Part shown: piece by piece, positions 797 through 20,181 of the stretch | Numbering within the stretch: the stretch's first letter is position 1 | Layout of the letters: each line of letters starts with the position of its first letter | Assembly (NCBI GenBank): GCA_016839555.1 | Contig: JAEOUA010000011.1 | Coordinates: forward strand, 96,001 to 160,000 | Origin: Promethearchaeota archaeon | GTDB taxonomy: Archaea > Asgardarchaeota > Lokiarchaeia > Sigyniarchaeales > SOKP01 | Reading direction: 5' to 3' | DNA: 64,000 nt | The notes under the pieces: generated by a model | What the model saw: only the letters and a program-made list of their open reading frames with translations | Databases searched by the model: none | Told to the model about the DNA's origin: nothing | Made by a program: the position numbers and the translations under genes

Positions 797-811
797 TATT
801 TAAATAAAAAA
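797..811 (-). promoter_or_regulatory. T-rich-BRE/TATA motif TTTTTTATTTAAATA
   Basis: 21 nt upstream of the start at 775. Confidence 0.6.
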
Positions 812-842
812 TCTTGACAGAATTAGAAAAAAGAAACTATCC

Positions 843-1064
843 TTATATTCCCCACAATTCTTTCATGATGCTAATAATCATCATAATATTATTAATGGAA
901 AGGATGGATTCATCCTTATAGTACTCAAAATCAGCTTTTTCAAACTCATTGTGGCAATGTGGACACTCAAAGGTATCGCCATAATCTATAATTTTAGTCA
1001 TACCGCAATAGGGGCAGTGATATTGTTTCTTTGGTTTTTCATTTAGGTGATTAAATAGTTCCAT
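843..1064 (-). CDS. Small C4 zinc-ribbon protein
   Basis: CPYC...CPHC. Confidence 0.75.
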   Translation of the reverse strand: MELFNHLNEKPKKQYHCPYCGMTKIIDYGDTFECPHCHNEFEKADFEYYKDESILSINNIMMIISIMKELWGI

Positions 1065-1087
1065 CTGATCTTGTATATGACCAATCC

Positions 1088-1102
1088 TATTTAAACAAAA
1101 AG
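1088..1102 (-). promoter_or_regulatory. T-rich-BRE/TATA motif CTTTTTGTTTAAATA
   Basis: 23 nt upstream of the start at 1064; 17-mer 1087-1103 is identical to 20019-20035. Confidence 0.65.
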
Positions 1103-1130
1103 ATTACAATCTCATTAAAATGTGAAACTA

Positions 1131-1145
1131 TTTTTTCTTTAAATA
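1131..1145 (+). promoter_or_regulatory. T-rich-BRE/TATA motif TTTTTTCTTTAAATA
   Basis: 46 nt upstream of ATG 1192; 20-mer 1126-1145 is identical to 9943-9962. Confidence 0.65.
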
Positions 1146-1191
1146 AAAAGGCAAGATATTGTGCTTAACTAAATAAATTACCTTCTAAACT

Positions 1192-1509
1192 ATGAGAGAA
1201 TTGGAAGAAATTGGAGATTGCCCCCAATGCGGGTGCACGTTGATGATGTATAAAACTTCCAACTATAAGCGATTCGTAAAGTGCGAGGTATGTGGGAACT
1301 CCTATCCTGTACCTAAGAGTGGAAGCATTCATTCCTCAGCACTGTTATGTCCCCTCCGCAAATATCCGATATTGATCATTCAAAAAGAAAATTCCAAAGC
1401 GTATTTCTGGACGGATCGACCATGTTTCAGCTGTACGCATTATGATAAATGCCAAGAAGTTACATCATTAATCCAAGAATTTAGTCAATTAGAGGTGTAT
1501 GGCTATTAA
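1192..1509 (+). CDS. Cys-rich zinc-ribbon protein resembling topoisomerase IA C-terminal C4 repeats
   Basis: CPQCG..L....S..KRFVKC..C...YPVP followed by further Cys clusters. Confidence 0.7.
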   Translation: MRELEEIGDCPQCGCTLMMYKTSNYKRFVKCEVCGNSYPVPKSGSIHSSALLCPLRKYPILIIQKENSKAYFWTDRPCFSCTHYDKCQEVTSLIQEFSQLEVYGY

Positions 1510-2623
1510 TACCAAGAAATATATACATAAAAAATTTGGCTATATTATCCTTTTATTCGTCTGCTTGATGGGGGTCATTGTGATCGGTATTACATTAAAT
1601 GCTCATCATAAAGACCAATATGATAATGAATATGTTTATTCTTATATCTTGCATCAAATGCTTTTTCAAAAGGAAGAGATATCTTCCCCTGTACATAGCT
1701 CGATTCAAAGCAGTGAATATACTGACATGTTAGTGGATAAGGTATATACCTTTCTAGAGGGACACTATATATTGAATATTTCAGATCTCTATCTTATTAA
1801 AGGTTTTCGGTATTCTATTAGACTTGCAATAGTAACTGATAATCACCAATGCAATATGGAAATTAATCTTACGGATCCTATTGGGTGGTCTTACTATATT
1901 TTTGCTACAGATGGAAACAAGTTAACCTTTAATGAGTATCGGGAAATTCCCTATGGTGCGGCAAGAACGGGAAATCACACCCTTTATTTTGAGAAATTAG
2001 ACGGTCCCAATCTCAATATCCATATCCAAGTGATCAATGAAGGATTATGTTATGAGCTCTTTGATCCAGGGGAGAATATCTATTGGATAGATCTTATCCC
2101 GATTTCGCGACCAGAACCCCCTTCCGCAGGCATCAATTATCAAAAATATCTTTATTTATTACCACAACGAATGTATAGCATCCATATTTCGAGAGTGTCC
2201 GCAGTGCGCGCCGATTATTCCAATAAAATATATGTAGATCATAATGTGGTAGATCCTTCGGAGGATCATATTTCCTTTCCTATTTATACTCATAAACTTA
2301 TGAATGGGCTCTTTGAAGAAGATCAATATCACTTTGGCACGGCGATTCAAGGTACCTACCTGTTTAATTTTACTTTTTACCCTGATATGGAATATACCAA
2401 TATCTTACTCTTTGTGGTGGATGAGGGACAAATTGCTACTGGACAAAAGCCTCTTCCGTTTAATATTAGCTATTTGTTATCACTCGATCTCGAAGCTCCT
2501 GAGATCGTTCCCTCGGTATCTATGCCATTTGAGGCGCAATTGGGGCTCGGAATTGGAATCGGCTCTTTAATTATCATTGGACTTTCCATCGCGTTTTATA
2601 CGAAGCATAAATCGAATTTGTGA
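1499..2623 (+). CDS. Membrane-anchored surface protein (N-terminal TM/signal, beta-rich ectodomain, C-terminal TM)
   Basis: Hydrophobic N- and C-terminal segments, basic tail; overlaps the upstream ORF. Confidence 0.7.
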   Translation: MAINTKKYIHKKFGYIILLFVCLMGVIVIGITLNAHHKDQYDNEYVYSYILHQMLFQKEEISSPVHSSIQSSEYTDMLVDKVYTFLEGHYILNISDLYLIKGFRYSIRLAIVTDNHQCNMEINLTDPIGWSYYIFATDGNKLTFNEYREIPYGAARTGNHTLYFEKLDGPNLNIHIQVINEGLCYELFDPGENIYWIDLIPISRPEPPSAGINYQKYLYLLPQRMYSIHISRVSAVRADYSNKIYVDHNVVDPSEDHISFPIYTHKLMNGLFEEDQYHFGTAIQGTYLFNFTFYPDMEYTNILLFVVDEGQIATGQKPLPFNISYLLSLDLEAPEIVPSVSMPFEAQLGLGIGIGSLIIIGLSIAFYTKHKSNL

Positions 2624-2741
2624 TCCTTTTCACTTTTCTTTTTTTAATATCTTATTTTTTTTCAAAATTTGGTATAAAAGATACTAACGACGGAATATCG
2701 ACATAAATATTAAAAACTAGAAAATCATAATACCCTCTATA

Positions 2742-3188
2742 TTGTTAAAGCTAGATATTTTTTTCATCCCTATGGAAAAACCATCATCTTATTACGATTG
2801 GCAATTGAGTTATCAAGAAAATCCCTCCGATAGCTTAAATAGGAAAATAAAGGATATTTTAAACAAATATTCGGACAGAAAAACTCTCTATAAAACAGCT
2901 TCCATTTCGAATTCCTTATTTAATATAGAAAAACTTGATTTTGAGGGAGGGATTTTAGAATGTTCTATAAAAGCAGAAGATCAAAATAAGCTTAAAATTA
3001 TTATTGATACTAAAAAGCGGATAATCTCTCATAAGTGCAGAGAATTTAAAGCACTAAACAACTATCGTAAAAAATTCTGCTCTCATCTGCTTAAATTATG
3101 TTTTATTTTACAGGAAAAAGCACCAACCCAATTAATCTCTTTTTTAAAAGATATAACTACTTATGATTATAATTTTTTTCCCAAATAA
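2742..3188 (+). CDS. SWIM-type zinc-finger protein
   Basis: HKC-x13-CSH, a variant of CxC-xn-CxH; real start may be ATG 2772. Confidence 0.65.
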   Translation: MLKLDIFFIPMEKPSSYYDWQLSYQENPSDSLNRKIKDILNKYSDRKTLYKTASISNSLFNIEKLDFEGGILECSIKAEDQNKLKIIIDTKKRIISHKCREFKALNNYRKKFCSHLLKLCFILQEKAPTQLISFLKDITTYDYNFFPK

Positions 3189-3232
3189 TATAAAATTTGT
3201 TGAAAAAAAGAATAAAAAGAACATAGATTTTA

Positions 3233-4480
3233 TTATTCTGCTTGTTTTTGCCACTCTTCTATCATAGAATTGGATACACCACTTATTTTTGAGGAAAGTT
3301 CCTTGGGATCCGCATCTAATAGATCCTCTACGCTATGAATTCCTTGTTCCTTGAGGCTTTCTAAGGTACCCTTGCCAATGCCTTTAATGTCAGTCAATTT
3401 TTTAATATTAGAGCTTTCACTTTCTTCATCTTCATCCTCTTCGTCGAAAGAATCATCATCCTCGCTTTCTTCATACACCGTTTCTATATCAAATTCCAAG
3501 CTTTTTGCTTGAGGTAAATCCACTTCTTCTGAATCGGCAACCCCTGCACTGGTAATATAAAATTCACATTCCTCAGGAGGAAGGTCAGGTGCGTCCACTA
3601 TGATCGCACGTCGTTTCAAGGAACTATTAGATGAAAAACCTTTTGTTTTAAACATTATACGAAAGTGGCATCCGTGAGCGACGATATTACCTCCTATGGC
3701 ATCATCGGCAGAAAATAATCCTTTTATTTGCACTGCCACTTGATTTGTCACTAGAATTGCGGCGTTATACATTTCAGCAATTCGTGAAAGTGCGTGGATC
3801 ATATTATTTAAGACACATTGTCGTTTCGCTAACATACCAATCCCCACATATTCTGCTCTGAGGAGCGCCATCAAGCTGTCAACGATTACAAGGCGAACAT
3901 TACGATTCTTACAGAGTGTTTCAGCCTTGAGTATCATTTGGTCTTGATGATCAGAGCTAAAGATTCTCGCATGAAATACTTTTGATAAAGCTTCCTTAGG
4001 ATCTATCTTAAATCTTTTAGCAATTCGGATTATTTTACTACGTGAAAAGGTGTTTTCAGTGTCAATATAGGCAACCGAGCCTCCTAATCCTCCTTTTTTT
4101 TTGGATAATTGGACGGTTACCGCAAGAGTATGTGCTAAATTTGTTTTTCCAGATTTAAAAGGTCCATAAACTTCTGTTACTTTACCTGTTTGCATTCCAC
4201 CTCCTAAGATACGATCTAATTCAGACGAGCCTGTAGTAAAGAACTCTGTATTTTCGTCCATTTCTGATACAGGCGTAAATTCAGTCATATTAAGCGCGTT
4301 GCGAGCATTCCAGATCAGTGTTTTGACGGTTTTTTCCCCGAGTCCTTTAATTTCCGATACAACAATTTGAGAGGACATCGCAAGCATTTCTGCGGTTGAG
4401 ATCCCATTCTCTTGGAGAAGTTTTATATGACGTGAGTTGATTCCTTTAATCTGGCTTAATTCTGCTATTTTATTATACAC
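3233..4480 (-). CDS. radA: RadA/Rad51-family recombinase paralog with acidic linker and extra C-terminal HhH domain
   Basis: TTGSSELDRILGGG, Walker A GPFKSGKT, YIDTENTF, Walker B LVIVDS, TNQV, GGNIVAH; IKGI HhH motifs at both termini. Confidence 0.93.
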   Translation of the reverse strand: MYNKIAELSQIKGINSRHIKLLQENGISTAEMLAMSSQIVVSEIKGLGEKTVKTLIWNARNALNMTEFTPVSEMDENTEFFTTGSSELDRILGGGMQTGKVTEVYGPFKSGKTNLAHTLAVTVQLSKKKGGLGGSVAYIDTENTFSRSKIIRIAKRFKIDPKEALSKVFHARIFSSDHQDQMILKAETLCKNRNVRLVIVDSLMALLRAEYVGIGMLAKRQCVLNNMIHALSRIAEMYNAAILVTNQVAVQIKGLFSADDAIGGNIVAHGCHFRIMFKTKGFSSNSSLKRRAIIVDAPDLPPEECEFYITSAGVADSEEVDLPQAKSLEFDIETVYEESEDDDSFDEEDEDEESESSNIKKLTDIKGIGKGTLESLKEQGIHSVEDLLDADPKELSSKISGVSNSMIEEWQKQAE

Positions 4481-4542
4481 CCCACAATTATTTCTTTTTT
4501 AAATTCTAGTTTATTATAGTTATCATTTTTTAAAGTTAGAAT

Positions 4543-4557
4543 TATATAAAGAAAAAA
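4543..4557 (-). promoter_or_regulatory. T-rich-BRE/TATA motif TTTTTTCTTTATATA
   Basis: 62 nt upstream of the radA start. Confidence 0.55.
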
Positions 4558-6179: not shown

Positions 6180-6194
6180 TATTTAAAGAAAAAT
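6180..6194 (-). promoter_or_regulatory. T-rich-BRE/TATA motif ATTTTTCTTTAAATA
   Basis: 57 nt upstream of the start at 6122. Confidence 0.5.
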
Positions 6195-6243: not shown

Positions 6244-6990
6244 TTAAGCTTGAAATTTGATCCCTCTTTCTGTCAAATGAATATTGAATGAGTGAGTTGT
6301 ATTATAATAATGGAAATTTAATTGCCTTTGATTTAAAAAAACATCTTTTTTTAATTCTATATTTAAGGATTGTAAATTTTCAAATAAAAGATGGTTGAAC
6401 ATAACAGTTTTTTCTTTTTTAGGATTATAAGAAACTTCATGAATTAAGATCAATAATATATTATTTCTTCCGCAAAAAAAGAGCAGTGGTAATAATACCG
6501 AATCAAAAAAATCATCTAAAATGGAAGTTGTGAGATTAATATCAGAGTATTTAGAGATTTCAAATCGAAGATGATGGGAAATATTATCTATAATTAAAAC
6601 TTTAACTTTTGGGGGTAAATCTATTTTCTTATTAGAAATCTTAATTAGAATTTCAGAAAGTTGATAATAATCTTGACAAGCCTTTTCAGGTATAACCAAA
6701 ATATGATTTTTAATATAATTAAGCTCTGCATCTCTATTTTTGTACATTTTCATTAAACGTTTCTTTGAAAAGTTTTCAGCAGCTTGTACCCATATGCAAT
6801 AGTTTTCATTTCTTTCTAATTTTATTAATAAGTATCTTAATAGTTGCATTGCATAGGTAGTTTTTCCTGTTCCTGCTTTTCCATATATATTTACGAGGGA
6901 AAATCGAGGGAATAATTTTGTAATAATTTCCCGTTGAGAAAATCGCTTATTTTGCAATATGGCATTAATTTCTTCTTCTTTTAATACCAT
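6244..6990 (-). CDS. RadB/Rad51-paralog-like RecA-fold ATPase
   Basis: Walker A GKAGTGKT, ENFSKKRL, Walker B LIIDNIS, LIHEV; no N-terminal HhH. Confidence 0.8.
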   Translation of the reverse strand: MVLKEEEINAILQNKRFSQREIITKLFPRFSLVNIYGKAGTGKTTYAMQLLRYLLIKLERNENYCIWVQAAENFSKKRLMKMYKNRDAELNYIKNHILVIPEKACQDYYQLSEILIKISNKKIDLPPKVKVLIIDNISHHLRFEISKYSDINLTTSILDDFFDSVLLPLLFFCGRNNILLILIHEVSYNPKKEKTVMFNHLLFENLQSLNIELKKDVFLNQRQLNFHYYNTTHSFNIHLTERGIKFQA

Positions 6991-7413: not shown

Positions 7414-8160
7414 TCACCACTGCCCTCTTTCTATTGTTTCTTTTATCTTGTTATTGGATTTCAAACGATTTCGATATAAATCACGTGATAATCCAGATGT
7501 ATTATGAAAAGTAATTCTGCTTTTCACCCACATAACGAATCTTTTTATTCCGATAAATAAATATTTTAAAATATAATATAAAATACCAGTAAAAATAAAA
7601 TAAAGAAATGTCAAGTAAAATGGCAAATAAAAATTAGCAAAGTATATAATTATATATATAAATCCTCCTGAAATTATAACTAAAATGATTTGATATAATG
7701 AATAGATCTTATCATCACAAAATGTCCAACCAATCATTTTAAAGTCGTGATTGGAGGGTTTTGCTCCCAATAGAAGCGAAAGAAAACAGATGCCCGCAAA
7801 TACCTTGTAAAGTAACTCTATATCAATTTTAAACATAATGCAAAACATTCCATAAGCTATATAGCTACAAAACACCAAAGGGGCTAAGGAAATTAACGCA
7901 ATCTGAAGAAAGGTCACTCTTTCTGTTGCATCGAACTGGACAAATCCAAATTGTCTCTTATAATATATCTTCATTTTCTTGGGTTTCACACCGGTTATGA
8001 TACACATAATTAGATGCGATAATTCGTGAAAGAGAATTCCAACCACACCTATAGTTTTAAAGTAGGTTTTTTGTCGGATTTTCTTTGGAATAATAAATTT
8101 TAACAAAATATTACATCCCAAAATAAATCCAAAAAGTAAAAGATCATTTAGCATAGGCAT
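7414..8160 (-). CDS. Membrane zinc metalloprotease (M50B/DUF3267-like)
   Basis: HELSH zincin motif, SLAP and PS..D motifs, multiple TMs. Confidence 0.8.
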   Translation of the reverse strand: MPMLNDLLLFGFILGCNILLKFIIPKKIRQKTYFKTIGVVGILFHELSHLIMCIITGVKPKKMKIYYKRQFGFVQFDATERVTFLQIALISLAPLVFCSYIAYGMFCIMFKIDIELLYKVFAGICFLSLLLGAKPSNHDFKMIGWTFCDDKIYSLYQIILVIISGGFIYIIIYFANFYLPFYLTFLYFIFTGILYYILKYLFIGIKRFVMWVKSRITFHNTSGLSRDLYRNRLKSNNKIKETIERGQW

Positions 8161-8175: not shown

Positions 8176-8190
8176 TATATAAATGAAAAC
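8176..8190 (-). promoter_or_regulatory. T-rich-BRE/TATA motif GTTTTCATTTATATA
   Basis: 15-21 nt upstream of the protease start; near-identical to 16729-16743. Confidence 0.55.
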
Positions 8191-8593
8191 TCTTGTTATA
8201 GAAGAAAAAAGATTTCTTTGTTATAATAAGTTTGTTAAATAGATAGCCTTAACATTAATAAAATAAACCATTTTATAAATAACTCTGTTTTCTGCCTGTC
8301 CCTAGCATATTAGGCTTTTGTTCTCAGAATAAGGCTATACAACTGATTTCATTTTGGTAGTAATTTTTTTAAAGATTAGAATATAATTTTGATTGCAAAA
8401 TTCTTACTGAAATATATTCAGTATATATAAATATCTTGATGAACATCGCTCATAATATCAAAACTAAATTAAAAAAAGTTGAACAATTTCTAAAAATCGA
8501 TAGCTTTATAAATCAAACTCCTTCCTAATATTACTCAAGAAAAATTGAAAATAAAAGGATCAACAAAAAATAGATATATATTGTGATATAAAA

Positions 8594-9847
8594 ATGGCAA
8601 TAAAAAATAATCCTGAAAATCCATCTGTGAGTGATATGGATCTTACTTGTGATTTATGTAAATCTAAAGAAATTTTAGAGACTAACCAAGGATACGTGTG
8701 CTCAGAATGTGGACTTGTCTTGCAAACTCCTCGAATGCAATACCATAGACCTTTTATGCAAAAAAAAATACAACATGAGGTCTCTAATGGGAGTACTTCT
8801 ATAGGGTATCAAAAAGAACGTCTCAGAGATAAGCATTCTTCTCAATTAAAAAGATTGCAAAAGATTCAACAGACTAAATCGAATGAAGATTATATAAATC
8901 AATTTGCTAGTATAGAGATTTCTCGCTTACTCACAGGTTTATCATTACCTCGCTCTTTTAAAGATCCTATATTTAAAGTATTTAAAGAGATTCGAAAACA
9001 ACTACAAAAAGGAACAAAATATCGAAATCCAGATAAATTACTTCCAACATTAATTTATTTCTATTGTAAGAAAGAGAGTATGGCAATTAATGAACAAAAA
9101 TTATTAGATATTGCAAAAGTGGAAAAAAAAGAGTATAATTATTGCAAATTAAAAATTTCACGTCTTATTCCTGAATATTATGAGCGTGATCGTAAGGACC
9201 TTATCATGAATAAAGTTTTGGGAATCTCGGAGCAATATAATTTAGGGATGGATTTTTATTATGACGCAAAAAAGGTTTTGATAAATTTATGGGAAGGAGT
9301 TAAATGTACTACTGATGATGTAATTGCTGGATTAATATCATCTGTTGCTGTATTATGTAATTATCGTAATAAGATTACTATAAGCTCTATATGTAGTGCA
9401 TTAAACATCCAAATGAGCTCTATTCAGTCTCAAGTAAAACGTAAACTTATCAAGCGATTTAATGTTCCTGGATTTGAGAGTCTCGTAAAATCTGCTGACC
9501 TGGTGAAAACAATCATTTACAAAGTAGGGATACTAAAAAATCAAAAAACCGAGGAGGATATAAAAACTATTAATTCTGACAAAGTTAGCAATAAGAGAGA
9601 AAATGAATCTAAAATTATTGAGGTTAAAGTAAAAGCTTATGCTCAAAATCCTTCAAATCAATCGGGAGAACAATATATTTTTGCCATTAATAATAATAAT
9701 TTAAATCCTCTTTATCTAATGTTAAAAATTAATAAATTTAAAAAAAAAAGAAAGGTTATAAAAAATCGCTCAGAGTTTCAAAAACAGCTTAAATTTCATT
9801 CGATAGTATTTCATTATCCTACAGGACCCCCTGAAATATATTCCTAA
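8594..9847 (+). CDS. tfb: Divergent transcription factor B (TFB/TFIIB) paralog with C-terminal extension
   Basis: Zn ribbon CDLC...VCSECGLV, two cyclin-like repeats, about 120-aa extra tail. Confidence 0.82.
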   Translation: MAIKNNPENPSVSDMDLTCDLCKSKEILETNQGYVCSECGLVLQTPRMQYHRPFMQKKIQHEVSNGSTSIGYQKERLRDKHSSQLKRLQKIQQTKSNEDYINQFASIEISRLLTGLSLPRSFKDPIFKVFKEIRKQLQKGTKYRNPDKLLPTLIYFYCKKESMAINEQKLLDIAKVEKKEYNYCKLKISRLIPEYYERDRKDLIMNKVLGISEQYNLGMDFYYDAKKVLINLWEGVKCTTDDVIAGLISSVAVLCNYRNKITISSICSALNIQMSSIQSQVKRKLIKRFNVPGFESLVKSADLVKTIIYKVGILKNQKTEEDIKTINSDKVSNKRENESKIIEVKVKAYAQNPSNQSGEQYIFAINNNNLNPLYLMLKINKFKKKRKVIKNRSEFQKQLKFHSIVFHYPTGPPEIYS

Positions 9848-9947: not shown

Positions 9948-9962
9948 TTTTTTCTTTAAATA
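9948..9962 (+). promoter_or_regulatory. T-rich-BRE/TATA motif TTTTTTCTTTAAATA
   Basis: 46 nt upstream of ATG 10009. Confidence 0.65.
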
Positions 9963-10008: not shown

Positions 10009-12975
10009 ATGAAGAAAAGTAAATCTCTATCGACGATAAGTTTCATAATTGTTTTATGCATAATGACTGCGATAATTCCATATTTAGTAAGTCCTAACTT
10101 ATCACGAAATCATTTAATTAATACTGATAATGCAACTTTAGATAATATTCAAAATTCAGATGGGATATCCAATCCGGATATTATCGAAACGATGATTAAT
10201 AAATATATCAATGATTATGACTCCAGTGGAATCTTTTCCTCCTATTATGAGCCTTCATTACAAGGTATTTATTTTGTCCTATCGGTATTAAATGCTTCTG
10301 AGAAACTAAATATCATTAATCAAACTGAACTTTCGGAGATTATTATGAGTTATTATGATGAAAATACTGGTATATTTTTAGATGAATACGCCAGAAGATA
10401 TCTGGACACGGATTTTGAATTAAAATACTACCCATTGAGCACATTATTGGAAGTGAATTCCTATGCTATCTTATCATTAGAAATCTTAGGAGAATTAGAC
10501 TTAATAAATTCTCAAGATATGATCGATTTTATTTGGAGCTGTTATGATTCCAGCACAGGAGGTTTTATCGGACAATTGTATGATACTAACCTTCACGAGA
10601 ATTTTAAAACGCCCACCTTAGATAATACCTATTACGCAATCAAAACCTTAGATATCCTCTTAGAGAATTGGCAAGGATACAGCACTCAAAAAACGCAAAT
10701 TATTAATTTCATACAAGATCTACAAGTGATAGATCAAGGCTATGAGCTCTATGGAGGCTTCGAAAATGATATGAATGAGGACTTTTTATCGATTGTGGCG
10801 TATGGTCCCAATATGCTTTCCAGTTATTATGCGGTAAAAGCATTAAAGATATTCGGCGTAGAAAGCTCTATTAATATGGATTTATTTTATCATTTCTTAA
10901 GCAATAGTTATCACCAAAACGGCGATTATTTTGTTTATGACGACTATAATATCTATCTTAATTATTCTATATTTGCTGCTACTGCTATGGGCTTAGATCT
11001 TTCCATACTTATGGGTTATACTGGAATAAATGAAACAGAAACACTCAGATTTTTGCTAAATAATAGAAACGAATTAGGTATTTGGGACTCCACAACATAT
11101 TATGGCTTTTATGAGCTACTTGACACCTTTCAAATTATACGTTCTCTTTTAGAAGCTAATAAAATAAGTGAATTAAGCACTGAGGATAAAAATGAGATTG
11201 TTAATGCCATGGAAATGTTTGAAAGTTATCGGGGCTATAGTTTTACCTCTAAGGAATATATGAAAATAGATCTTATGTATTCCATTATTCACTCATGCGC
11301 TCTATATGATCGTATCTCAGATTTAGAATTACAGGATCTATATCTCTATTTTAAGCAAGCATATTATGATTTACAATCAAATGATTGGAGTGGTTTTTAT
11401 GGTTATACTAATATTGACAAAGAGTATAAGTATTTTCGATTGCTTCCTATAGAATTTTATAATGAAGGCATGCATAATTTTAGTATTTATATGGATTATC
11501 ATAACAATCATAAGTTTACCTATCGAGCCTTAAGTTCCTTGGAAAAACTCTTTAAGTTGGATGATTTTGAAACTATTTTTAATCTCACAGAACTCATAGA
11601 AAGCATTGAAAATTGTCAAATTATGGAAGAGACTTCGGACTATTTTGGAGCATTCATACCTTTTGAATTCTGGAAATCACAACCATTAGCGGACCAAGAG
11701 AAAATGATATTTTTCGAACAAACGTATTTTGCGATAAAGACCTTAGCATATCTTACTGAATACCTAGGAATCGGCAATATTTCAAATACAAATGTTGATT
11801 TAGATGCGGTATATACTTATACTTTGAAAAATATTGAGGAAACTCCGCAAATTCTTTACTATAATCCAGAATGTACTGATAATCCGGAGATTATTCTCAA
11901 AAACACCTATTATCTCATTGATTTATTCAAACTCATGAATGAATACTCTTTACCAGACCAAAAAATTAAAAATCTTGTGCTTCAAACTATTAATTACTCA
12001 AATATCGAAAGCGTTTTTTATAGTTATAAGATAGATGAGTCACTGTCTCTTCAGATCGAGTTTGACTTGGATCAAACGCATAGCTTGATAAAAAGCATTT
12101 TCGATGAGAAGGAGCAAGAATTATATCTCACGCCACAACAAGAAAAGTTAAATTATGAAATTCTCTATTGGCTAAGTTATATGGCAGTAAATGACGAATA
12201 TCGCTGCATTATCGATTATGATACTACTGTGCAATTGAATGGATGCAATTATATCAACGCATCTATTTGTAATATTGTCTTAGAAGGATTAGGTCCTTAT
12301 GCAATCTTAAAATTAGAAAGTGAGCAGTTAGGCACACATACTTTTGATGAAACAGGAGAGGGGAATTACGAATATATTGCAAATGTTCCTTTAGATCCTG
12401 CAAATTATCCCATAGTGTATGCAAATGTGTGCCTTTATGAGGCCTCACAAAGGATAAAAGGATATCCATTTTCCTTTACCACAGAGTATATATTTGATTC
12501 TTTATTTTCGGTCAGCAATTCCACAGATACTAGAGATATAGTGATTCAAGCACATCTTTCTACTGCTACAGGAAATGTTTCGCTTTATAATGGAATTGCA
12601 TACGTGGATATTTATCGCAATGGAGAATTTGTCCAAAAGAAATTTCTCAATATGCAAGATTATGCGGATCATACGGAATTCATCGATACCATAAGTTATA
12701 ACCTCTCGGGAGAATATAGGCTTGAACTTTATGTAAACGATGGGTTAGAAACATCCTACCATCACATTGGAACTTATATCTTTACATATATTGCCTCTTC
12801 TGATTCAGTTTTCTCGGGCTTTCCTTTCCTTCTAGATATGGAATTCAATACTGAGAAAAATAATGTATCATTAAAAGCAAATTCAATGGCATTATTTCCC
12901 CTTTTCATCAGCTTAATTGCCCTCCCTATCGGAATTATCGCATATACTACCTATCGAAAGAAAAAGCGCTCCTAG
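10009..12975 (+). CDS. Large membrane-anchored surface protein with prenyltransferase/squalene-cyclase-like alpha-toroid repeats
   Basis: Signal/TM, repeated GGF...TYYAI..L motifs, beta-rich C-terminal region, C-terminal TM and RKKKRS. Confidence 0.78.
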   Translation: MKKSKSLSTISFIIVLCIMTAIIPYLVSPNLSRNHLINTDNATLDNIQNSDGISNPDIIETMINKYINDYDSSGIFSSYYEPSLQGIYFVLSVLNASEKLNIINQTELSEIIMSYYDENTGIFLDEYARRYLDTDFELKYYPLSTLLEVNSYAILSLEILGELDLINSQDMIDFIWSCYDSSTGGFIGQLYDTNLHENFKTPTLDNTYYAIKTLDILLENWQGYSTQKTQIINFIQDLQVIDQGYELYGGFENDMNEDFLSIVAYGPNMLSSYYAVKALKIFGVESSINMDLFYHFLSNSYHQNGDYFVYDDYNIYLNYSIFAATAMGLDLSILMGYTGINETETLRFLLNNRNELGIWDSTTYYGFYELLDTFQIIRSLLEANKISELSTEDKNEIVNAMEMFESYRGYSFTSKEYMKIDLMYSIIHSCALYDRISDLELQDLYLYFKQAYYDLQSNDWSGFYGYTNIDKEYKYFRLLPIEFYNEGMHNFSIYMDYHNNHKFTYRALSSLEKLFKLDDFETIFNLTELIESIENCQIMEETSDYFGAFIPFEFWKSQPLADQEKMIFFEQTYFAIKTLAYLTEYLGIGNISNTNVDLDAVYTYTLKNIEETPQILYYNPECTDNPEIILKNTYYLIDLFKLMNEYSLPDQKIKNLVLQTINYSNIESVFYSYKIDESLSLQIEFDLDQTHSLIKSIFDEKEQELYLTPQQEKLNYEILYWLSYMAVNDEYRCIIDYDTTVQLNGCNYINASICNIVLEGLGPYAILKLESEQLGTHTFDETGEGNYEYIANVPLDPANYPIVYANVCLYEASQRIKGYPFSFTTEYIFDSLFSVSNSTDTRDIVIQAHLSTATGNVSLYNGIAYVDIYRNGEFVQKKFLNMQDYADHTEFIDTISYNLSGEYRLELYVNDGLETSYHHIGTYIFTYIASSDSVFSGFPFLLDMEFNTEKNNVSLKANSMALFPLFISLIALPIGIIAYTTYRKKKRS

Positions 12976-13004: not shown

Positions 13005-13019
13005 TTTTTTCTTTTTATA
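13005..13019 (+). promoter_or_regulatory. T-rich-BRE/TATA-like motif TTTTTTCTTTTTATA
   Basis: 57 nt upstream of ATG 13077; overlaps the upstream terminator T-tract. Confidence 0.35.
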
Positions 13020-13799: not shown

Positions 13800-13814
13800 T
13801 TTTTTCTTTTTATA
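13800..13814 (+). promoter_or_regulatory. T-rich-BRE/TATA motif TTTTTTCTTTTTATA(AA)
   Basis: 30 nt upstream of the Hef-like start. Confidence 0.5.
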
Positions 13815-13844: not shown

Positions 13845-15941
13845 ATGAGCAATCTAAAAAGTAGGATTAGCGAAAACCAAATTGAGAATATGTTTTTAAA
13901 GACCGAAAATCTGGAATTCCGGCAATATCAATTAGCGATCGCCAATAAATGTGTTTCTAAAAATTCACTAGTGGTCTTACCGACTGGGTTAGGAAAGACT
14001 ATTGTTGCAGTACTAATTGCCGCGAAAACATTAGAGATTTCTCCGCCTAATAGCAAAATAATAGTGATGGCACCTACTAGACCGCTCATTAATCAACATT
14101 ACGACACATTTTTAGACTTTTTGACTGTTCCAGAATCTAAATTTTGTGTTTTAACGGGGAAGAATTCACCTGAAGTTAGACCTACTGAATTTTTAGATCA
14201 TCAGATTTTGTTTTTTACTCCGCAAACCTTACGTAATGATATCGTTTCGAAAAAATATGATTTAAAAAATGTATGTCTAATGATTTTCGATGAAGCACAC
14301 CATGCTTCGGGCGATTATCCTTATAATATATTAGCCGAGCAATATATTGAACAAAATCCAGATGGGACCATTTTAGCCTTAACTGCTTCTCCGGGAGCGA
14401 GTAAAGAAAAAATCACTGAATTATGTAAAGCGCTGTATATCCCTCCCGATAATATTCATATTCGAATAAGAAAGGATTTTGATGTGAAGAATTATATAAA
14501 GGCAATGGATATTTATAAGATCGGTGTAAATTTAACCTCCCTTATGGAAGCCGTGCGAAAAATTTTGTTTACTATTTTGGAAGAATGTTTACAATATCTT
14601 TCACGTTTGGGTTTTATTTCCATCAAATCTCCACAATTACATCAAAAGATTATTCGAAAAGATTTATTAGAACTGAATCGTAAATTAGTCTCGATAATTT
14701 CTGGAGAAGGAGATAAGACGGGAGCATATAAAGGACTTTCTGTGAACGCTCAGGGCCTTATTTTATTTCATATGTTAGAATTAGTAGAGCAACAGGGATT
14801 GGATGTCTTATTAAATTACTTGGAAAAGTTAATGCAAGATGCAAGAAAAAGAAATAGCTCTAAAGCGAACCGTATATTAGCCTCAGACAGTCGGATAAGA
14901 CGAATGCATCTAGAACTATTGAAAAGAAACGACTGCGAGCCGAATATTCTGATTCATCCTAAATTTCTCATTTTAAAAAATATCTTGCTTGATGAATTAA
15001 CGAAGAATCCAGACTCTCGGATCTTAGTGTTTGTCAAATTACGAGCCTCGGTAAAAAATATTGTTAAAAGACTTAAAACTTATGAAAAGATTAGAGCGAT
15101 TCGATTTGTGGGACAAACAACCAAGTCTAAGGATGATAAGGGGCTCACACAAACCAAACAACTCGAGATTCTTAAGAAGTTTAAAAAAGGAGAATATAAC
15201 GTATTAGTGGGTACCAATGTCGCTGAAGAGGGATTGGATATAGCCGAATGCGACTTAGTAATATTTTACGATGTTGTTGCATCAGAGATCCGCTTAATCC
15301 AGCGAAAAGGAAGGACTGCCCGCCATAGAGAAGGGAAAGTGATAATACTGTATTGTCGTAATACCAATGATGAGACATATTTATTGATTGCATTAAATCG
15401 TTTGAAACAAATGCAGAGCAATTTAAAAAAAGCACCAAAAAACTCTATTCCTACTGAAAAGGATATGACGCAATCGCACTTAGGAAAGTATATCAATGAC
15501 AAATCAAAACCACAAATTAAAAAAAAAAAGTCGACTCAAACAAATTTAAATGAATCTAAGATAGCTATAAGTTCAAAATTTCCTATGAAATATGGGCTTC
15601 GAAAAGATCTTTCAAAAGAAAATATTAGTTTTAATATTCAGAAGTCAGATTTTCATCTCATTCTTTTTAATAGAATACTGATTCAGGTCCTTAAACCCAC
15701 AGAATTTTTAGAAGCAAAATTGAAGGGAATAAATTCTAAACTTAAAAATAAATTTGAATTAATTGTATTTATTTTCGACTTCACAGAGTTTCACGAGTCT
15801 TTTACGAATGAGAAGCTTCTATTTAAGCAAAAATTACTGGATTTTGGTAGTAAACAAGATTTTCAAATAATACCTATTGATATACCTGAGGAGCTTTCTT
15901 TCATCGTCAAAAATATTTATCACCATAACAATAATAAGTAA
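13845..15941 (+). CDS. hef: Hef/FANCM/Mph1-type SF2 helicase with degenerate ERCC4-like C-terminal domain
   Basis: FRQYQ, LPTGLGKT, DEAHHA, LTASPG, HPK, RFVGQ, AEEGLDI, IQRKGRTAR. Confidence 0.92.
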   Translation: MSNLKSRISENQIENMFLKTENLEFRQYQLAIANKCVSKNSLVVLPTGLGKTIVAVLIAAKTLEISPPNSKIIVMAPTRPLINQHYDTFLDFLTVPESKFCVLTGKNSPEVRPTEFLDHQILFFTPQTLRNDIVSKKYDLKNVCLMIFDEAHHASGDYPYNILAEQYIEQNPDGTILALTASPGASKEKITELCKALYIPPDNIHIRIRKDFDVKNYIKAMDIYKIGVNLTSLMEAVRKILFTILEECLQYLSRLGFISIKSPQLHQKIIRKDLLELNRKLVSIISGEGDKTGAYKGLSVNAQGLILFHMLELVEQQGLDVLLNYLEKLMQDARKRNSSKANRILASDSRIRRMHLELLKRNDCEPNILIHPKFLILKNILLDELTKNPDSRILVFVKLRASVKNIVKRLKTYEKIRAIRFVGQTTKSKDDKGLTQTKQLEILKKFKKGEYNVLVGTNVAEEGLDIAECDLVIFYDVVASEIRLIQRKGRTARHREGKVIILYCRNTNDETYLLIALNRLKQMQSNLKKAPKNSIPTEKDMTQSHLGKYINDKSKPQIKKKKSTQTNLNESKIAISSKFPMKYGLRKDLSKENISFNIQKSDFHLILFNRILIQVLKPTEFLEAKLKGINSKLKNKFELIVFIFDFTEFHESFTNEKLLFKQKLLDFGSKQDFQIIPIDIPEELSFIVKNIYHHNNNK

Positions 15942-16498: not shown

Positions 16499-16532
16499 TA
16501 AAAATTAAAAATTAATAAAAAAATATAGTAAT

Positions 16533-16706
16533 TTAAAAAATGGATCGAGCTTTTTTCTTTAGTTCTCTAAGCCTCTGCTTATATTCTGGACATTCTTTAT
16601 AGTTTGGAAACTTGCAAATTGTTTCGGACTGCGGCATGATACAACTCTGATCAAAGGGGCAATAGAGAATATGCGCCTTAAAGCCTGCCTTCCCGTGCGA
16701 ACTCAT
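16533..16706 (-). CDS. 57-aa four-Cys microprotein (not in the ORF track)
   Basis: MSSHGKAGFKAHILYCPFDQSCIMPQSETICKFPNYKECPEYKQRLRELKKKARSIF; promoter motif 22 nt upstream. Confidence 0.65.
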   Translation of the reverse strand: MSSHGKAGFKAHILYCPFDQSCIMPQSETICKFPNYKECPEYKQRLRELKKKARSIF

Positions 16707-16728
16707 AATGTTTATAATTTTATATATA

Positions 16729-16743
16729 TATTTAAATGAAAAC
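16729..16743 (-). promoter_or_regulatory. T-rich-BRE/TATA motif GTTTTCATTTAAATA
   Basis: 22 nt upstream of ATG 16706. Confidence 0.6.
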
Positions 16744-16813
16744 TAGATCCCATACTTTTAAATCTGAATGAGCCATATGAAAAAGTGATTTATTTAAAAT
16801 TATACAAGAGTTA

Positions 16814-17011
16814 TTATTCCAATTCTTTTTTAAGCTGATTTATATGTTCTTCGGTTAATGTTTGCAAGTTGGTTGAATCATTGCTTTCCTTAAAAATTGA
16901 GAAAGAAATAAAGATTTTTCTTCTTAAATAATTCAGAATTGAACTGAAATCCTTATCATGAATTTCCCTTTTTCTTTGAAATCCATTCTTTTCTTTAAGT
17001 TTACTGCTCAT
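16814..17011 (-). CDS. Small hypothetical protein
   Basis: 65-aa ORF with promoter motif 21 nt upstream. Confidence 0.5.
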   Translation of the reverse strand: MSSKLKEKNGFQRKREIHDKDFSSILNYLRRKIFISFSIFKESNDSTNLQTLTEEHINQLKKELE

Positions 17012-17032
17012 ATATCCAATATCAATCCAATG

Positions 17033-17047
17033 TATTTAAAAGAAAAA
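17033..17047 (-). promoter_or_regulatory. T-rich-BRE/TATA motif TTTTTCTTTTAAATA
   Basis: 21 nt upstream of ATG 17011. Confidence 0.55.
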
Positions 17048-17054
17048 ATAATTT

Positions 17055-17342
17055 TTATCCCGTTTCTTGCATTTTTTTGAGATATAATTTCATAAAATAG
17101 CGCTGGCTCTTGCAGTAGTCCCGTCTTTGAGCATCCGTAATACTTTTACTATTTAAGAGGATATTAAGTTGCTTAAGGATTGTAAGATATTCTTGAGTGG
17201 TTCTCTTAGGCTCTCGTTTTATTTTAATATCAATTTTTCCTTTTAAAAAAGTTTGCGATGATGAAGTTTGAGGAATGGTAAATGAGAATTTTTCTTTCTT
17301 TTTTTCATCTTTTTCAACCCCAAAGTCGGAATCTAATGACAT
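17055..17342 (-). CDS. Small basic hypothetical protein
   Basis: 95-aa ORF downstream of the Hel308-like gene. Confidence 0.55.
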   Translation of the reverse strand: MSLDSDFGVEKDEKKKEKFSFTIPQTSSSQTFLKGKIDIKIKREPKRTTQEYLTILKQLNILLNSKSITDAQRRDYCKSQRYFMKLYLKKMQETG

Positions 17343-17416
17343 TATAAAATATAAAAATTTGATAATTATATTGACTCTATTCTATATACACCAGCAACAA
17401 ATAAAAAGAAAAAATT

Positions 17417-19963
17417 TTACTTTTTAGGAAACGTTTTTATAGCACTTTCTATAATACTTTTACAGAGTTTTACACCAAGCCCCGTCTTATGATGTAAATG
17501 GTAGGGAGTATCTTTTGCTACTTGTTCGGAGGTGTGATAGCCTGCAGTAAACAAAATTCTGCCTCGTACCCGTGCCACGTGTTTTAGTCGTAGAATCAAA
17601 TCGAATAATTCTTCTTTTATCCCATAATGAATGCGAATTCGAAGCGTCTCACACATCTCGGCGATCTTTTCCATATCATTCTGGATATCTCTTCCGGAGG
17701 AACTTAGATGTTCAGCGATAATACCAATAAAGGTGATAATACGCTCTAAATTATCTTTCACCGACATTAAATCGCCCGCCATAATATTATGTCTTTCCAA
17801 AATGTCTTCTAAAGTCACTTCATCTGCCCATTCGATAATGGGCTCCAAAAATTTGCGATTCCTAACCTTCCTTTCTGAGAGAAGAATATCATAAGCTTCC
17901 TGAATGAGATCTTGGTATGATTCTATTAGCCGATTTTCCAATTTACTTCGAATAAGAACACCAGATACAGGATAGAGATAAAGTCGAATAATCAGTTTTC
18001 CAAATTGCGAGCATTTCACTGTAGAATCAGAATTTTTAAGGATCAATCCCTTTTCAAAAAGATAATTGAGGATATACTGACTTTTAATGCATTTCGGAAG
18101 AATATTATTTACGTATTTTTGCACCCGTTTATCGGGGATCTGAAGCAAATACAGCAAGAAAGCGGTAATATGATCGCAAAACTCAAATGCAAACTTATTA
18201 TCCACGAAATTATCGGAAATACCGTTTTTGAATCCGCAAGAACATCGAATCCCTTTTTCAATATTAAAATCACAATAAAAAACCCCATAGCAAGATTTAA
18301 TATAGCCCGCAATTGTTTCTCCGCTGAGCTTAGTAATTTTGATTTGATTATCTTGCTTTCTCATTTTTTTTACTTGGTTTGGATTAGAATGAAGTTTTAG
18401 AATATTTAAGGGATTTATCTCTTCAATTAATAACAGTTGTTCTATTGGAAGGGGATGCTTCATTTTATGCTCAATTATATACCAAAAATAAGTTTTTCTA
18501 AAAAATGATTTCAAAGCCTCCAAAGTAATATTTTTTTCTTCATACACCCTCAGTAATACTTGTTCTTTCAAAGTATTAATGTCATTTAATCCTGATTTTA
18601 AATCTTCATATTTTGGTAGGAGTTTATTAGCAGATACGTCCATATTAAAAAAATGATCTTCAATCCACATCTTTTCTTCTATATTATTAACAAGGATTAT
18701 ACCGTAGCCCACGGTATCTAATCCTGGACGTCCAGCTCTTCCCAACATCTGAAATACCTCATTGGATGAAAAAGGCAAAAAATAAGAAAAGCCATCGCCG
18801 TTTTCGTAAAATCCCTTAAAATTGCTAATATTATATCCTGACGTCACATAGCGTTTAAAGTCTTTTAAAATAACTACGCGAGCAGGGACATTTACCCCAG
18901 CAGCTAATGTAGTGGTACAACATATAACTTTGAGAATTCGCCTTCGATAATTATCTTCCACTAACTTTCTTTCCTTGGGTAATAATCCAGCATGATGAAA
19001 AGCAATCCCATATTCCACTAATTTGCGGAGTTCTTTATTACCTCCTCGAAGATTATCCAATTTCTCCGAGATTTCCTTACAGATAGCTGCTTCATTTTCT
19101 TCTAAGAAATGGTGGGAAATAGATTTAAGCAAAGAGGCAGTTTTTTGAGTAGCTTTTCTAGTTCTTACAAAAATCAACACTTGTCCTTTATTCTCCAATG
19201 TTTTTTTGGTATAGCGCTGTATAGTAGATTTTTTATTCTGCGACACTTCTATCTGAAAATGAAGCGGTACAGGACGTTTATCTGAAGTAATGAGAATTGT
19301 TTTGTTGCCTAAAGAATTTAGCCACGAGTTAAAGAATTTCGGGTTGTTAATGGTCGCCGAAAGACCAATGATTTGCGGGGAATTTAAGATTTCGTTTAAT
19401 CTCACAATCAGAGATTCTAATCGGGGACCTCGGGAATTTTCTCCAATAAAGTGGATCTCATCAATTATAATAGTAGCAATATCGAAAATCCATTCTTTAT
19501 CGTAAAAATTGCGAATAATAGAATCCATTTTTTCATAGGTGGTTACAATTATATCCGCTTTTTCTAATTTAGAATCATCTACATCATAATCTCCAATAGA
19601 TAATTCGATATTTACTCTAAAACGAGAATATAATGTTTTAAAGTGAAAATATTTTTCTGTGGCAAGTGCTTTATAGGGTACCAAATAGATGGATTTGCCA
19701 AACTCTTGAAAAATATTATATATCGCACAGATCTCACCTATCAATGTTTTTCCACTCCCCGAAGGTGCGCAGATGAGAAAGGATTTGCGGAAAAACAGTC
19801 CTTTTTGGATAGCTTCTTTTTGTATTTTCCGCAATTCGAAAATTTTGGATTCTAATAGAACTCGTAAGATTCGATCATCCGGAATGAGCTTAAAGATCTC
19901 TTTTTCTTCAAGATCCTCCAATTGCTTTTCTTGGTCTGAATCAGTATAATCTAAAATAGTCAT
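17417..19963 (-). CDS. Hel308/Ski2-like SF2 helicase with inserted SWIM finger
   Basis: APSGSGKT, DEIH, LSAT, HHAGL, TTTLAAGVNVPAR, QMLGRAGRPG, C-terminal HLH (RVRGRIL); insert CSC...FCDH. Confidence 0.9.
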   Translation of the reverse strand: MTILDYTDSDQEKQLEDLEEKEIFKLIPDDRILRVLLESKIFELRKIQKEAIQKGLFFRKSFLICAPSGSGKTLIGEICAIYNIFQEFGKSIYLVPYKALATEKYFHFKTLYSRFRVNIELSIGDYDVDDSKLEKADIIVTTYEKMDSIIRNFYDKEWIFDIATIIIDEIHFIGENSRGPRLESLIVRLNEILNSPQIIGLSATINNPKFFNSWLNSLGNKTILITSDKRPVPLHFQIEVSQNKKSTIQRYTKKTLENKGQVLIFVRTRKATQKTASLLKSISHHFLEENEAAICKEISEKLDNLRGGNKELRKLVEYGIAFHHAGLLPKERKLVEDNYRRRILKVICCTTTLAAGVNVPARVVILKDFKRYVTSGYNISNFKGFYENGDGFSYFLPFSSNEVFQMLGRAGRPGLDTVGYGIILVNNIEEKMWIEDHFFNMDVSANKLLPKYEDLKSGLNDINTLKEQVLLRVYEEKNITLEALKSFFRKTYFWYIIEHKMKHPLPIEQLLLIEEINPLNILKLHSNPNQVKKMRKQDNQIKITKLSGETIAGYIKSCYGVFYCDFNIEKGIRCSCGFKNGISDNFVDNKFAFEFCDHITAFLLYLLQIPDKRVQKYVNNILPKCIKSQYILNYLFEKGLILKNSDSTVKCSQFGKLIIRLYLYPVSGVLIRSKLENRLIESYQDLIQEAYDILLSERKVRNRKFLEPIIEWADEVTLEDILERHNIMAGDLMSVKDNLERIITFIGIIAEHLSSSGRDIQNDMEKIAEMCETLRIRIHYGIKEELFDLILRLKHVARVRGRILFTAGYHTSEQVAKDTPYHLHHKTGLGVKLCKSIIESAIKTFPKK

Positions 19964-20019
19964 ATAAAAAAAATTTATTAAATAGAATGAATTGAGATGA
20001 AAATCATATTTATTGAGAC

Positions 20020-20034
20020 TATTTAAACAAAAAG
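20020..20034 (-). promoter_or_regulatory. T-rich-BRE/TATA motif CTTTTTGTTTAAATA
   Basis: 56 nt upstream of the helicase start. Confidence 0.6.
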
Positions 20035-20166
20035 AGAAATATTTTTTTTATTGTTGATAATATCTCTCTCTCACGCAATACTTTTTTGAAAATTTAATGC
20101 GAAATTTCATATAAAAAAGGAATAGAATGTTTTAATTTTATCAAGTCGGTTTCATGCATTTTTTAA

Positions 20167-20181
20167 TTTTTCCTTTAAATA
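20167..20181 (+). promoter_or_regulatory. T-rich-BRE/TATA motif TTTTTCCTTTAAATA
   Basis: 25 nt upstream of ATG 20207, the head of a five-gene operon. Confidence 0.6.

Follow-up and report, generated by a model that had tools for sequence, protein, structure and literature searches.

Whether paralogues of transcription factor B (TFB) can act in the manner of sigma factors is an old question in archaeal transcription. The window, a stretch of 64,000 nucleotides on contig C11 of a Lokiarchaeia genome, raises it again. The initial annotation had listed 13 copies of a T-rich, TATA-linked element 15–62 nt before start codons, and had proposed a second promoter class that marks a co-regulated gene set and is read by a specialised TFB. 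Our analysis located all 13 sites at the coordinates and on the strands given, and the distances held. Five match the originally proposed consensus exactly (797, 1131, 9948, 17033, and 20167), five have one mismatch (1088, 4543, 6180, 16729, and 20020), and three need two (8176, 13005, and 13800). The two long exact matches that had been noticed (1126/9943 and 1087/20019) are real, each being found only twice in the genome. As had also been noted, the remaining 43 kb holds only two clear copies, both exact (41386 and 48005), besides weaker ones at 33180 and 34439.

797–811 (−), T5-N-TATA promoter 21 nt before a 74-aa two-TM gene; motif at ≤1 mismatch in 8/8 orthologues, at 24 nt in several
1088–1102 (−), promoter of a 73-aa Cys-rich (Zn-finger-like) gene, 23 nt
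1131–1145 (+), promoter of a unit of a topoisomerase-Zn-ribbon and a 374-aa membrane protein, 46 nt; motif in 9/9 orthologues
4543–4557 (−), promoter of a RadA paralogue, 62 nt; motif before 9/11 RadA-labelled genes, two of these labels being later recognised as HhH membrane proteins
6180–6194 (−), promoter of a 125-aa Zn-finger-like gene; 4/4 orthologues, 20–21 nt
8176–8190 (−), promoter of an operon of M50 peptidase, 119-aa, and RadB-like genes; 10/10 orthologues, mostly 21–26 nt
9948–9962 (+), promoter of a 988-aa membrane-anchored alpha-alpha toroid protein, 46 nt; 9/11 orthologues
13005–13019 (+), weak promoter copy before a 206-aa gene; 6/6 spaced orthologues, 15–25 nt
13800–13814 (+), promoter copy before a Hef/XPF-type helicase paralogue
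16729–16743 (−), promoter copy, 22 nt; the small ORF that follows has about 50 codons and its start at 16706
17033–17047 (−), promoter copy 21 nt before a 65-aa ORF (16814–17011); also 21 nt in the orthologue of genome G005
20020–20034 (−), promoter of a Hel308-like helicase, 56 nt
20167–20181 (+), promoter of a membrane operon ending in a HerA/VirB4-fold gene, 25 nt; 9/9 orthologues, 24–31 nt
41386–41400 (−), outlying exact match, 30 nt; the gene that follows is a 108-aa paralogue (43%) of one in the island
48005–48019 (−), outlying exact match ahead of a presenilin-like gene, 39 nt; the match may be due to chance

The element, T5-N-TTTAWAWA, places Ts on the BRE positions that are normally purine and fuses them to an ordinary TATA box, the T-run spanning −7 to −2 relative to that box. 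Strong archaeal BREs have R at −6 and A at −3 (PMC5817253); the T-run sites lack both bases and, in 99–100% of island sites, carry T at each. T occupies −6 to −3 in 98–100% of island sites, a figure that is partly a product of the search pattern, which selected those positions. Some copies are plain T10 runs. The element is non-palindromic, oriented, and strand-specific.

Among the findings that, by the initial annotation, would count against such a class were equal frequency before all genes and equal frequency at gene 3′ ends, as terminator T-tracts. Neither of these was observed. The element precedes 12 of the 25 genes of a gene island of ~40 kb compared with 18 of 2657 genes elsewhere in the genome (Fisher p = 1.5e-18), among them 5/9 genes in the part of the island outside the window. 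Two control patterns, an A5 version and a reversed version, each gave 0/25, and dinucleotide shuffles gave a mean of 0.26 where 12 were observed. Within the window, 16 matches at ≤1 mismatch compare with 3.97 ± 2.02 in shuffles (max 9). We see virtually no room for terminator T-tracts, or a by-product of intergenic DNA that is 80% AT, as the source of the matches. Four island sites, 17033 being one, do follow a stop codon on their own strand at ≤95 nt, but seven are in gaps between divergent genes, which contain no gene end, and none in 744 nt of convergent island gaps. In AT content, the island's upstream DNA does not exceed other upstream DNA (0.81 versus 0.83), and only 11 of 940 T/AT-matched background regions (about 1%) have the element. 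The divergent-gap and matched-background tests refute both versions of this reading, against which the conservation of start-codon distance gene by gene among orthologues also speaks. Distances to the ATG cluster at 21–25 nt, with none at 16–19 nt, a peak that would fit a TATA box ahead of leaderless starts.

Conservation upstream of orthologues was likewise borne out: the motif precedes 77/167 orthologues in a first set of genomes and 42/83 in held-out genomes, compared with 7/172 unlabelled neighbours. One held-out genome, closed at 6.0 Mb, has 6 of its 18 motif matches inside a 19-kb island. The proposal of a second promoter class thus stands on enrichment, strand bias, the leaderless-type distance peak, orthologue conservation, and rejection of the terminator reading. 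Judged from sequence comparison, the element is almost certainly the core promoter of the island plus a few scattered genes, an alternative BRE on a normal TATA box. We found no paper in the literature describing this promoter class. Regulon members that lie scattered can be sought by means of the motif.

The T-run promoters had originally been contrasted with purine-rich BREs before ordinary genes. The four examples exist (4661, 33208, 54242, and 63403) but are hand-picked: R(−6)/A(−3) precedes 23–27% of TATA-like 8-mers genome-wide compared with 24% in a control zone. On its sequence, the better contrast is the promoter of the island's own TFB, which we call TFB-X.

8498–8525 (+), tfbX promoter: canonical BRE (G−6, A−3), TATA box TTTATAAA, then a conserved ACTCC box
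8594–9847 (+), TFB-X, a full-length divergent TFB: Zn ribbon, two cyclin repeats, altered helix MS[ST][IV]Q, C-terminal extension

Among the 18 tfbX promoters that could be anchored on the ACTCC box, R(−6) and A(−3) each occur in 18/18. TFB-X has 417 aa. Its Zn ribbon matches PF08271 weakly, below the cut-off, but the cysteines (Cys-19, Cys-22, Cys-36, and Cys-39) are invariant in 16 sequences, whereas the B-reader region is shortened and divergent. Its predicted structure (pLDDT about 75–92 across residues 101–310) shows two cyclin repeats in the TFB core arrangement, the second one full, and resembles 1d3u and 1ais (Foldseek TM 0.74–0.75), with TM 0.74 to 1d3u, the Pyrococcus TFB in its BRE complex. 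The genome encodes 10 other TFBs, and relatives hold several TBPs. All 10 canonical TFBs keep TEVTxR; in TFB-X the canonical BRE-recognition helix (TQ..TEVTxR) is absent and ITI..QMSSIQSQ stands in its place. The helix reads MS[ST][IV] in every copy of family f1 examined and is nearly invariant.

A sister family, f2, has both a different helix, ASTVY, and a different element, TTYG-N-T+TATA, with a conserved G at −3. The latter precedes 10/28 orthologues, nearly all at 18–24 nt; the motif had initially been derived by eye, and two genomes that served for this are included in the f2 count. The f1 motif precedes 0/28 orthologues of f2, and the f2 motif 1/83 of f1. Promethearchaeum syntrophicum and Ca. 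Lokiarchaeum ossiferum use TTYG-N-T+TATA before the orthologous genes, and their TFB-X helix differs too. Helix and motif thus appear to have changed together between f1 and f2, as one evolutionary switch only.

These data suggest that TFB-X probably reads the T-run promoters, in the manner of a bacterial alternative sigma factor. The proposal of a specialised TFB draws strong but indirect support from the altered-helix TFB inside the cluster and from the joint change of helix and motif in two families; what holds it back is that this is a single switch, that 10 other TFBs and, in relatives, several TBPs exist, and that the motif survives in three genomes in which TFB-X was not found. Two of these (G184, 99% complete, and G222, 83% complete) have island genes carrying the motif. 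The other (G010, 99% complete) has exact motifs 21–73 nt before island remnants and an apparent tfbX promoter in the usual slot, which suggests a recent deletion. Neither TFB-X nor island RadA or Hel308 was found in G009, G021, and G153.

Motif persistence in genomes where TFB-X was not found would also suit an operator for a separate regulator, either a repressor blocking TFB or an activator such as the 206-aa HTH-like protein, with a canonical TFB initiating. The 206-aa gene occurs in both families and itself bears the motif, and a Sulfolobus precedent ties a T-rich non-palindromic hexamer to DNA-exchange genes. We nevertheless consider an operator unlikely. The element is non-palindromic and oriented, and it adjoins the TATA box in a fixed register, on bases that the second cyclin repeat of TFB must occupy, whereas the Sulfolobus hexamer, A(N)TTTC, sits elsewhere, occupying −44 to −39 with a separate BRE downstream of it (PMC6101591, PMC5817253). 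Moreover, conservation is poor across the putative HTH region of the 206-aa protein, in contrast to the TFB-X helix. Very unlikely, in our judgment, is a T-run that is not read base by base but silences promoters as a bad BRE or stiff A-tract, with TFB-X activating in trans like TFB3. Replacement of both key BRE purines by T would be enough to disfavour canonical TFBs, and the plain T10 copies fit a tract. However, a merely bad BRE would not stay fixed as one sequence across genera, the G at −3 in f2 interrupts the tract, and TFB-X has a full second cyclin repeat and a conserved helix, whereas TFB3 has no HTH.

If TFB-X is the reader, a canonical TFB would transcribe tfbX from its textbook BRE-TATA promoter, and a factor acting at the ACTCC box, immediately 3′ of the TATA, would probably gate this step. 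TFB-X would then join TBP on T-run promoters. Canonical TFBs, every one of which has TEVTxR, should read these promoters poorly. TFB-X would in this way turn on a large group of transcripts together, most of them leaderless, as an alternative sigma factor does. The genes so expressed would supply a second homologous-recombination kit (RadA, RadB, RPA, FEN1, Hef, and Hel308), along with an apparatus of the membrane and surface in which one subunit has the HerA/VirB4 fold. Bacterial competence offers a parallel in the alternative sigma factor ComX/SigX, a dedicated initiation factor that has a promoter of its own and jointly induces genes for a recombinase, for ssDNA binding, and for DNA transport; only the regulatory logic is alike, the factor family and machinery being different, so that this is analogy and not homology.

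The island carries second copies of all six recombination genes. It exceeds what the initial annotation could see, running from about 11.6 kb left of the window to 27.8 kb within it; the roughly 12 kb to the left holds an RPA-like OB protein, a roadblock protein and a small GTPase, and PP-loop and membrane genes.

1–500 (−), FEN1/XPG paralogue, 5′ part
551–775 (−), 74-aa two-TM hairpin protein, pilin-sized
3233–4480 (−), RadA paralogue with C-terminal HhH, 38% identity to the genome's other RadA proteins
6244–6990 (−), RadB/KaiC-like ATPase
7414–8160 (−), M50-like membrane metallopeptidase (weak match, E 1.5e-4)
10009–12975 (+), large surface protein, prenyltransferase-like toroid and two TM segments
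13845–15941 (+), Hef/FANCM-type SF2 helicase paralogue
17417–19963 (−), Hel308/Ski2-like helicase paralogue
20207–21811 (+), membrane protein; an HhH domain, present in orthologues, was not detected in the window copy
23481–27374 (+), membrane protein of about 1290 aa with a HerA/VirB4-fold C-terminal domain and degenerate Walker A

The C-terminal domain of the last protein matches HerA (4d2i, Foldseek E 2e-12) and VirB4 (4ag5, 5e-11; TM 0.64), and its atlas features lie near CedB. Its Walker A consensus, LLIxNGTxxxRE, has no GK[ST] and lacks the lysine. Island proteins with five and eight TM segments are candidates for a CedA/VirB6-type channel, which has 6–7. The 74-aa protein, a possible CedA1/VirB2-type pilin, is conserved and gave no match in a PDB sequence comparison. 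The island may be an inducible DNA exchange and recombination programme, a proposal for and against which we find the case evenly divided; DNA transfer is unproven because the Walker A lysine is missing from the VirB4-like protein and no homology to CedA or a pilin emerged.

Several known systems share parts of this arrangement. The Sulfolobales TFB3 DNA-damage regulon (Ups pili, Ced importer; PMC6101591, PMC5817253) likewise ties a TFB paralogue to a VirB4/HerA-type membrane protein and DNA-exchange genes, with a T-rich non-palindromic promoter element. However, TFB3 is short, whereas TFB-X is full-length with both repeats and a rewritten HTH; the Sulfolobales hexamer is also on tfb3, whereas the island element takes the BRE position and is absent from tfbX; and only here are regulator, recombination enzymes, and membrane genes clustered. 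Haloarchaeal TFBb/TFB2 at the hsp5 promoter (PMC2396416) and Sulfolobus TFB2 (bioRxiv 10.64898/2026.09.06.749720) also direct gene subsets via core promoter elements. The BRE of Sulfolobus TFB2 resembles that of TFB1, differing in spacing, whereas in the island BRE purines became T along with the recognition helix, and differ again in the sister family. The earlier cases checked involve a subtle BRE difference or a truncated TFB; here a differing BRE is paired with a differing helix, in two versions that permit a direct helix-swap test. The Ced/Ted domesticated conjugation systems (PMC9905601) resemble the island in being chromosomal loci where repair genes are linked to multi-TM proteins, a small protein with two TM segments, and one of the VirB4/HerA fold, but the island subunit has a degenerate Walker A. 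Asgard archaea are not mentioned in that paper. Among the island proteins, no sequence-level match to CedA or CedA1 was found, and there was one weak CedD match in 14 sequences.

A selfish or recently domesticated mobile (conjugative) element with a private TFB and promoter, instead of a host programme, is a rather unlikely account; it concerns the function of the island, not the identity of the promoter reader. The VirB4/HerA fold would suit it, as would a patchy distribution, additional partial copies (contig C7, G016, G024), TFB-X cassettes that stand as orphans, and the decay seen in G010. On the other hand, gene order is kept across many genera, with 50–75% identity in the repair enzymes, and no integrase or relaxase is among the annotated island genes, many genes being without annotation. 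The set is not contiguous in L. ossiferum, where 1.2 Mb separate tfbX from the membrane operon, and the motif is retained in the main cluster.

We tentatively propose, as a possibility we still consider somewhat doubtful, that Lokiarchaeia have a true counterpart of an alternative sigma factor, whose helix and BRE co-evolved away from the housekeeping pair and which may drive a programme of cell contact, DNA exchange, and recombination, a regulated parasexual state. If true, such a state would exist in prokaryotes closely related to eukaryotes, and both Loki species in culture would have it. The target set, which combines duplicated recombination enzymes with a membrane complex of translocase fold, is a candidate for Asgard DNA exchange and recombination. 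It is testable in cultures, since P. syntrophicum MK-D1 (tfbX near 1,748.4–1,749.7 kb) and Ca. L. ossiferum (tfbX near 4,424.9–4,426.2 kb, main cluster about 5,616–5,640 kb) have the orthologous genes.

Finally, a paralogous mini-island on C7 has the motif before 6/15 genes, and TFB-X is also present there. The motif also stands before a third 74-aa gene copy (C11:18827) that has no adjoining TFB-X, a point against TFB-X as the reader; in its favour, both orphan TFB-X copies of this genome sit near a motif-bearing 74-aa gene.

All 13 sites that the initial annotation had assigned to a T-run promoter motif were recovered at their positions (5 exact, 5 with one mismatch, and 3 with two), and the best form of the element was T5-N-TTTAWAWA. 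The source genome is Loki-type, 3.74 Mb in size with a GC content of 29-30%; in it, the window held 16 matches at ≤1 mismatch, compared with 3.97 in shuffles. Exact matches numbered 33 genome-wide and 14 on C11, the contig of which the window covers positions 96001-160000, 11 of these 14 falling within a single 29-kb stretch that begins to the left of the window. The motif lay 15-90 nt upstream of 12 of the 25 spaced genes of the island, a recombination/membrane gene cluster, whereas of the 2657 genes elsewhere only 18 had it there (p 1.5e-18). A5 and reversed control motifs preceded none of the 25, and in the island portion outside the window, unseen by the initial annotation, the motif was found at 5 of 9 genes. 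Neither shuffles nor AT-matched backgrounds explained this excess, and an explanation by AT-richness was rejected. The reading of the T-runs as terminator tracts failed as well, because 7 copies sit between divergently transcribed genes, and the convergent gaps contain none.

The island is syntenic in many genera of f1, the family of the source genome. The exact motif preceded 77 of 167 orthologues in the first genome set and 42 of 83 in held-out genomes, compared with 7 of 172 unlabelled neighbour genes. Its distance to the start codon is specific to each gene, with a peak at 21-25 nt; because the archaeal TATA box sits at about -26 to -30 (PMC5817253), this spacing fits predicted leaderless island transcripts.

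The initial annotation had proposed a second promoter class served by a specialised TFB. The class itself is almost certainly real, while its reader is so far a candidate: judging from sequence, the T-run promoters are probably read by TFB-X, the divergent TFB encoded within the island (ORF 8594-9847). In this protein a Zn ribbon is combined with two cyclin repeats. Its modelled structure matches that of Pyrococcus TFB in complex with the BRE (TM 0.74), in which the second cyclin repeat is the BRE-reading part (PMC7289017, PMC4581349). The recognition helix reads TEVTxR in all 10 canonical TFBs of the source genome and MS[ST][IV]Q in TFB-X, with MS[ST][IV] in every f1 member examined, and the TFB-X proteins form a separate clade on a long branch. 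At E 1e-15, TFB-X was detected in 21 of 25 f1 genomes, whereas sampling of other families across the phylum gave no hit; the TFB-X of the sister family f2 is too divergent for this cut-off and needed its own query. Motif-helix covariation within the family gave nothing convincing. The source genome encodes 10 canonical TFBs and 4 TFB-X copies, with one further divergent TFB-like gene at C7:193928. Another genome, G039 (L098, L099), has two larger TFB-X-like proteins of 508-521 aa, whose helix sequences are different again. TFB and TBP are a textbook pair. TBP was not found in the source assembly, probably owing to an assembly gap, since 37 of 41 genomes searched have it.

The comparison between families bears on the same question. 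Upstream of the orthologous genes in f2, the f1 motif was absent (0/28), and a different element, TTYG-N-T+TATA, occurred at 10 of 28 genes versus 1 of 83 in f1, nearly always 18-24 nt from the start. The f2 TFB-X helix reads ASTVY. This motif was derived from G038 (4,324,194 bp, taken as P. syntrophicum MK-D1T; PMC11316595) and G036; G181 (6,035,313 bp, taken as Ca. L. ossiferum; PMC9834061) was added only later. Of the 18 matches in the G181 genome, 6 lie within 19 kb of its island. These data suggest that motif and helix have co-evolved, which falls short of proof because the change between f1 and f2 is a single evolutionary switch.

A reader other than TFB-X is the less likely alternative; in its favour, motif-bearing island genes persist in three genomes in which TFB-X was not found (G010, G184, and G222). 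The assemblies of G184 and G222 are both fragmented at this locus. G010 retains exact motifs before island remnants, and its usual tfbX slot holds an apparent tfbX promoter with no gene behind it, which reads as a recent deletion of tfbX. This island is decaying (L223:12550-13003, L200:4621-8000): one of its genes is truncated, and next to small genes carrying the motif lies a TFB-like gene that is split. The island RadA and Hel308 were likewise not found in G010, and all three proteins were not found in G009, G021, and G153. G178 was rejected as a TFB-X-less counter-example, as a gap between contigs interrupts its tfbX slot, and whole-genome motif counts were too noisy to be set against TFB-X presence. 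In the closed 4.36-Mb genome G032, where TFB-X was not found, a Zn-ribbon orthologue (L117:4788-5123) is preceded at 22-23 nt by a sequence close to the f2 motif, and a fragment of the VirB4-like gene lies nearby; this locus is likely a relic.

The purine-rich BREs cited in the initial annotation for ordinary genes are all present but were hand-picked, and no genome-wide BRE signal rose above AT noise, in which a search from TATA-like 8-mers was drowned. Promoters of 12 tRNAs, taken as a canonical reference, showed no clear pattern. A reference came from the tfbX promoters: each of the 18 that could be anchored has R(-6) together with A(-3). The canonical BRE rule is therefore valid in this lineage, and island promoters violate both positions. 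Since the tfbX upstream region has a canonical BRE and nearly always lacks the T-run motif, the predicted regulon layout would be a cascade and not a self-activating loop. An ACTCCYWC box at 8516-8525 (+), conserved in 18 tfbX promoters and placed 2-6 nt downstream of the TATA box, is a candidate operator for the cascade trigger.

The island extends roughly from window -11.6 kb to +27.8 kb. Its products include repair paralogues (FEN1, RPA, RadA with HhH, RadB, Hef, and Hel308), of which RadA, FEN1, Hef, and Hel308 have additional copies elsewhere in the source genome, together with a topoisomerase-type Zn ribbon, a roadblock/small-GTPase pair, an M50-like peptidase, a large surface protein, and a 74-aa two-TM protein. 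A membrane operon begins with a gene whose orthologues have an HhH domain and ends with a ~1290-aa protein whose C-terminal domain has a fold like HerA and VirB4, with the Walker A lysine absent. PDB sequence searches with VirB4-like and pilin-like alignments gave nothing useful. We give DNA exchange as the regulon's output roughly an even chance. The likeness to the Sulfolobus TFB3 regulon lies in what is controlled. TFB3 lacks an HTH, whereas TFB-X has two cyclin repeats, so the island regulon is not a member; moreover, the TFB3 element is upstream of the BRE, whereas the island motif occupies the BRE position. TFB-directed selectivity through core elements is already known in haloarchaea; for Sulfolobus TFB2, the main difference is in the spacing of the BRE. 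Membership of the island in Ced/Ted is not established. The literature, incompletely covered, yielded no description of the island or its promoter.

Related loci of the source genome are as follows.

C7, 144-169 kb (L003, L004): incomplete paralogue of the island, with TFB-X (67%), the surface protein (72%), and VirB4-like (51%)
C1, 138793-142526 (L137): orphan TFB-X cassette
C11, 276996-281545 (L138): orphan TFB-X cassette
C10, 370882 (L132:1882-2580; G000, the source genome): member of a 232-aa family for which the atlas gives a weak Whirly-like lead (0.83)

This incomplete island also contains 119-aa and M50 genes, and the motif precedes the four target paralogues. Both orphan cassettes share 117-aa and 177-aa genes, each with a nearby 74-aa gene that has the motif at 53 nt, and look like mobile cassettes on the T-run promoter; a third 74-aa copy with the motif lies at C11:18827. 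The C10 gene is likely a dispersed regulon member: the motif precedes 11 of 29 homologues, and homologues lie inside the island in G013 and MK-D1, where in MK-D1 the upstream sequence nearly matches the f2 motif. A different 232-aa protein, a second TFB-X without a Zn ribbon (L071:10253-10951 in G013; C5 near 200.1 kb in G175), has its own T-run promoter at 21 nt and might inhibit the regulon through feedback. A 106-aa gene (C3:2133) was rejected as a conserved member, with the motif in only 2 of 30 homologues. Exact motifs also lie 66 nt upstream of MutS (L134:1925-4834) and 56 nt upstream of SMC (L135:2113-6534) in the source genome, either of which could be chance, and 39 nt upstream of a presenilin-like gene outside the island (window 46928-47965, minus strand).
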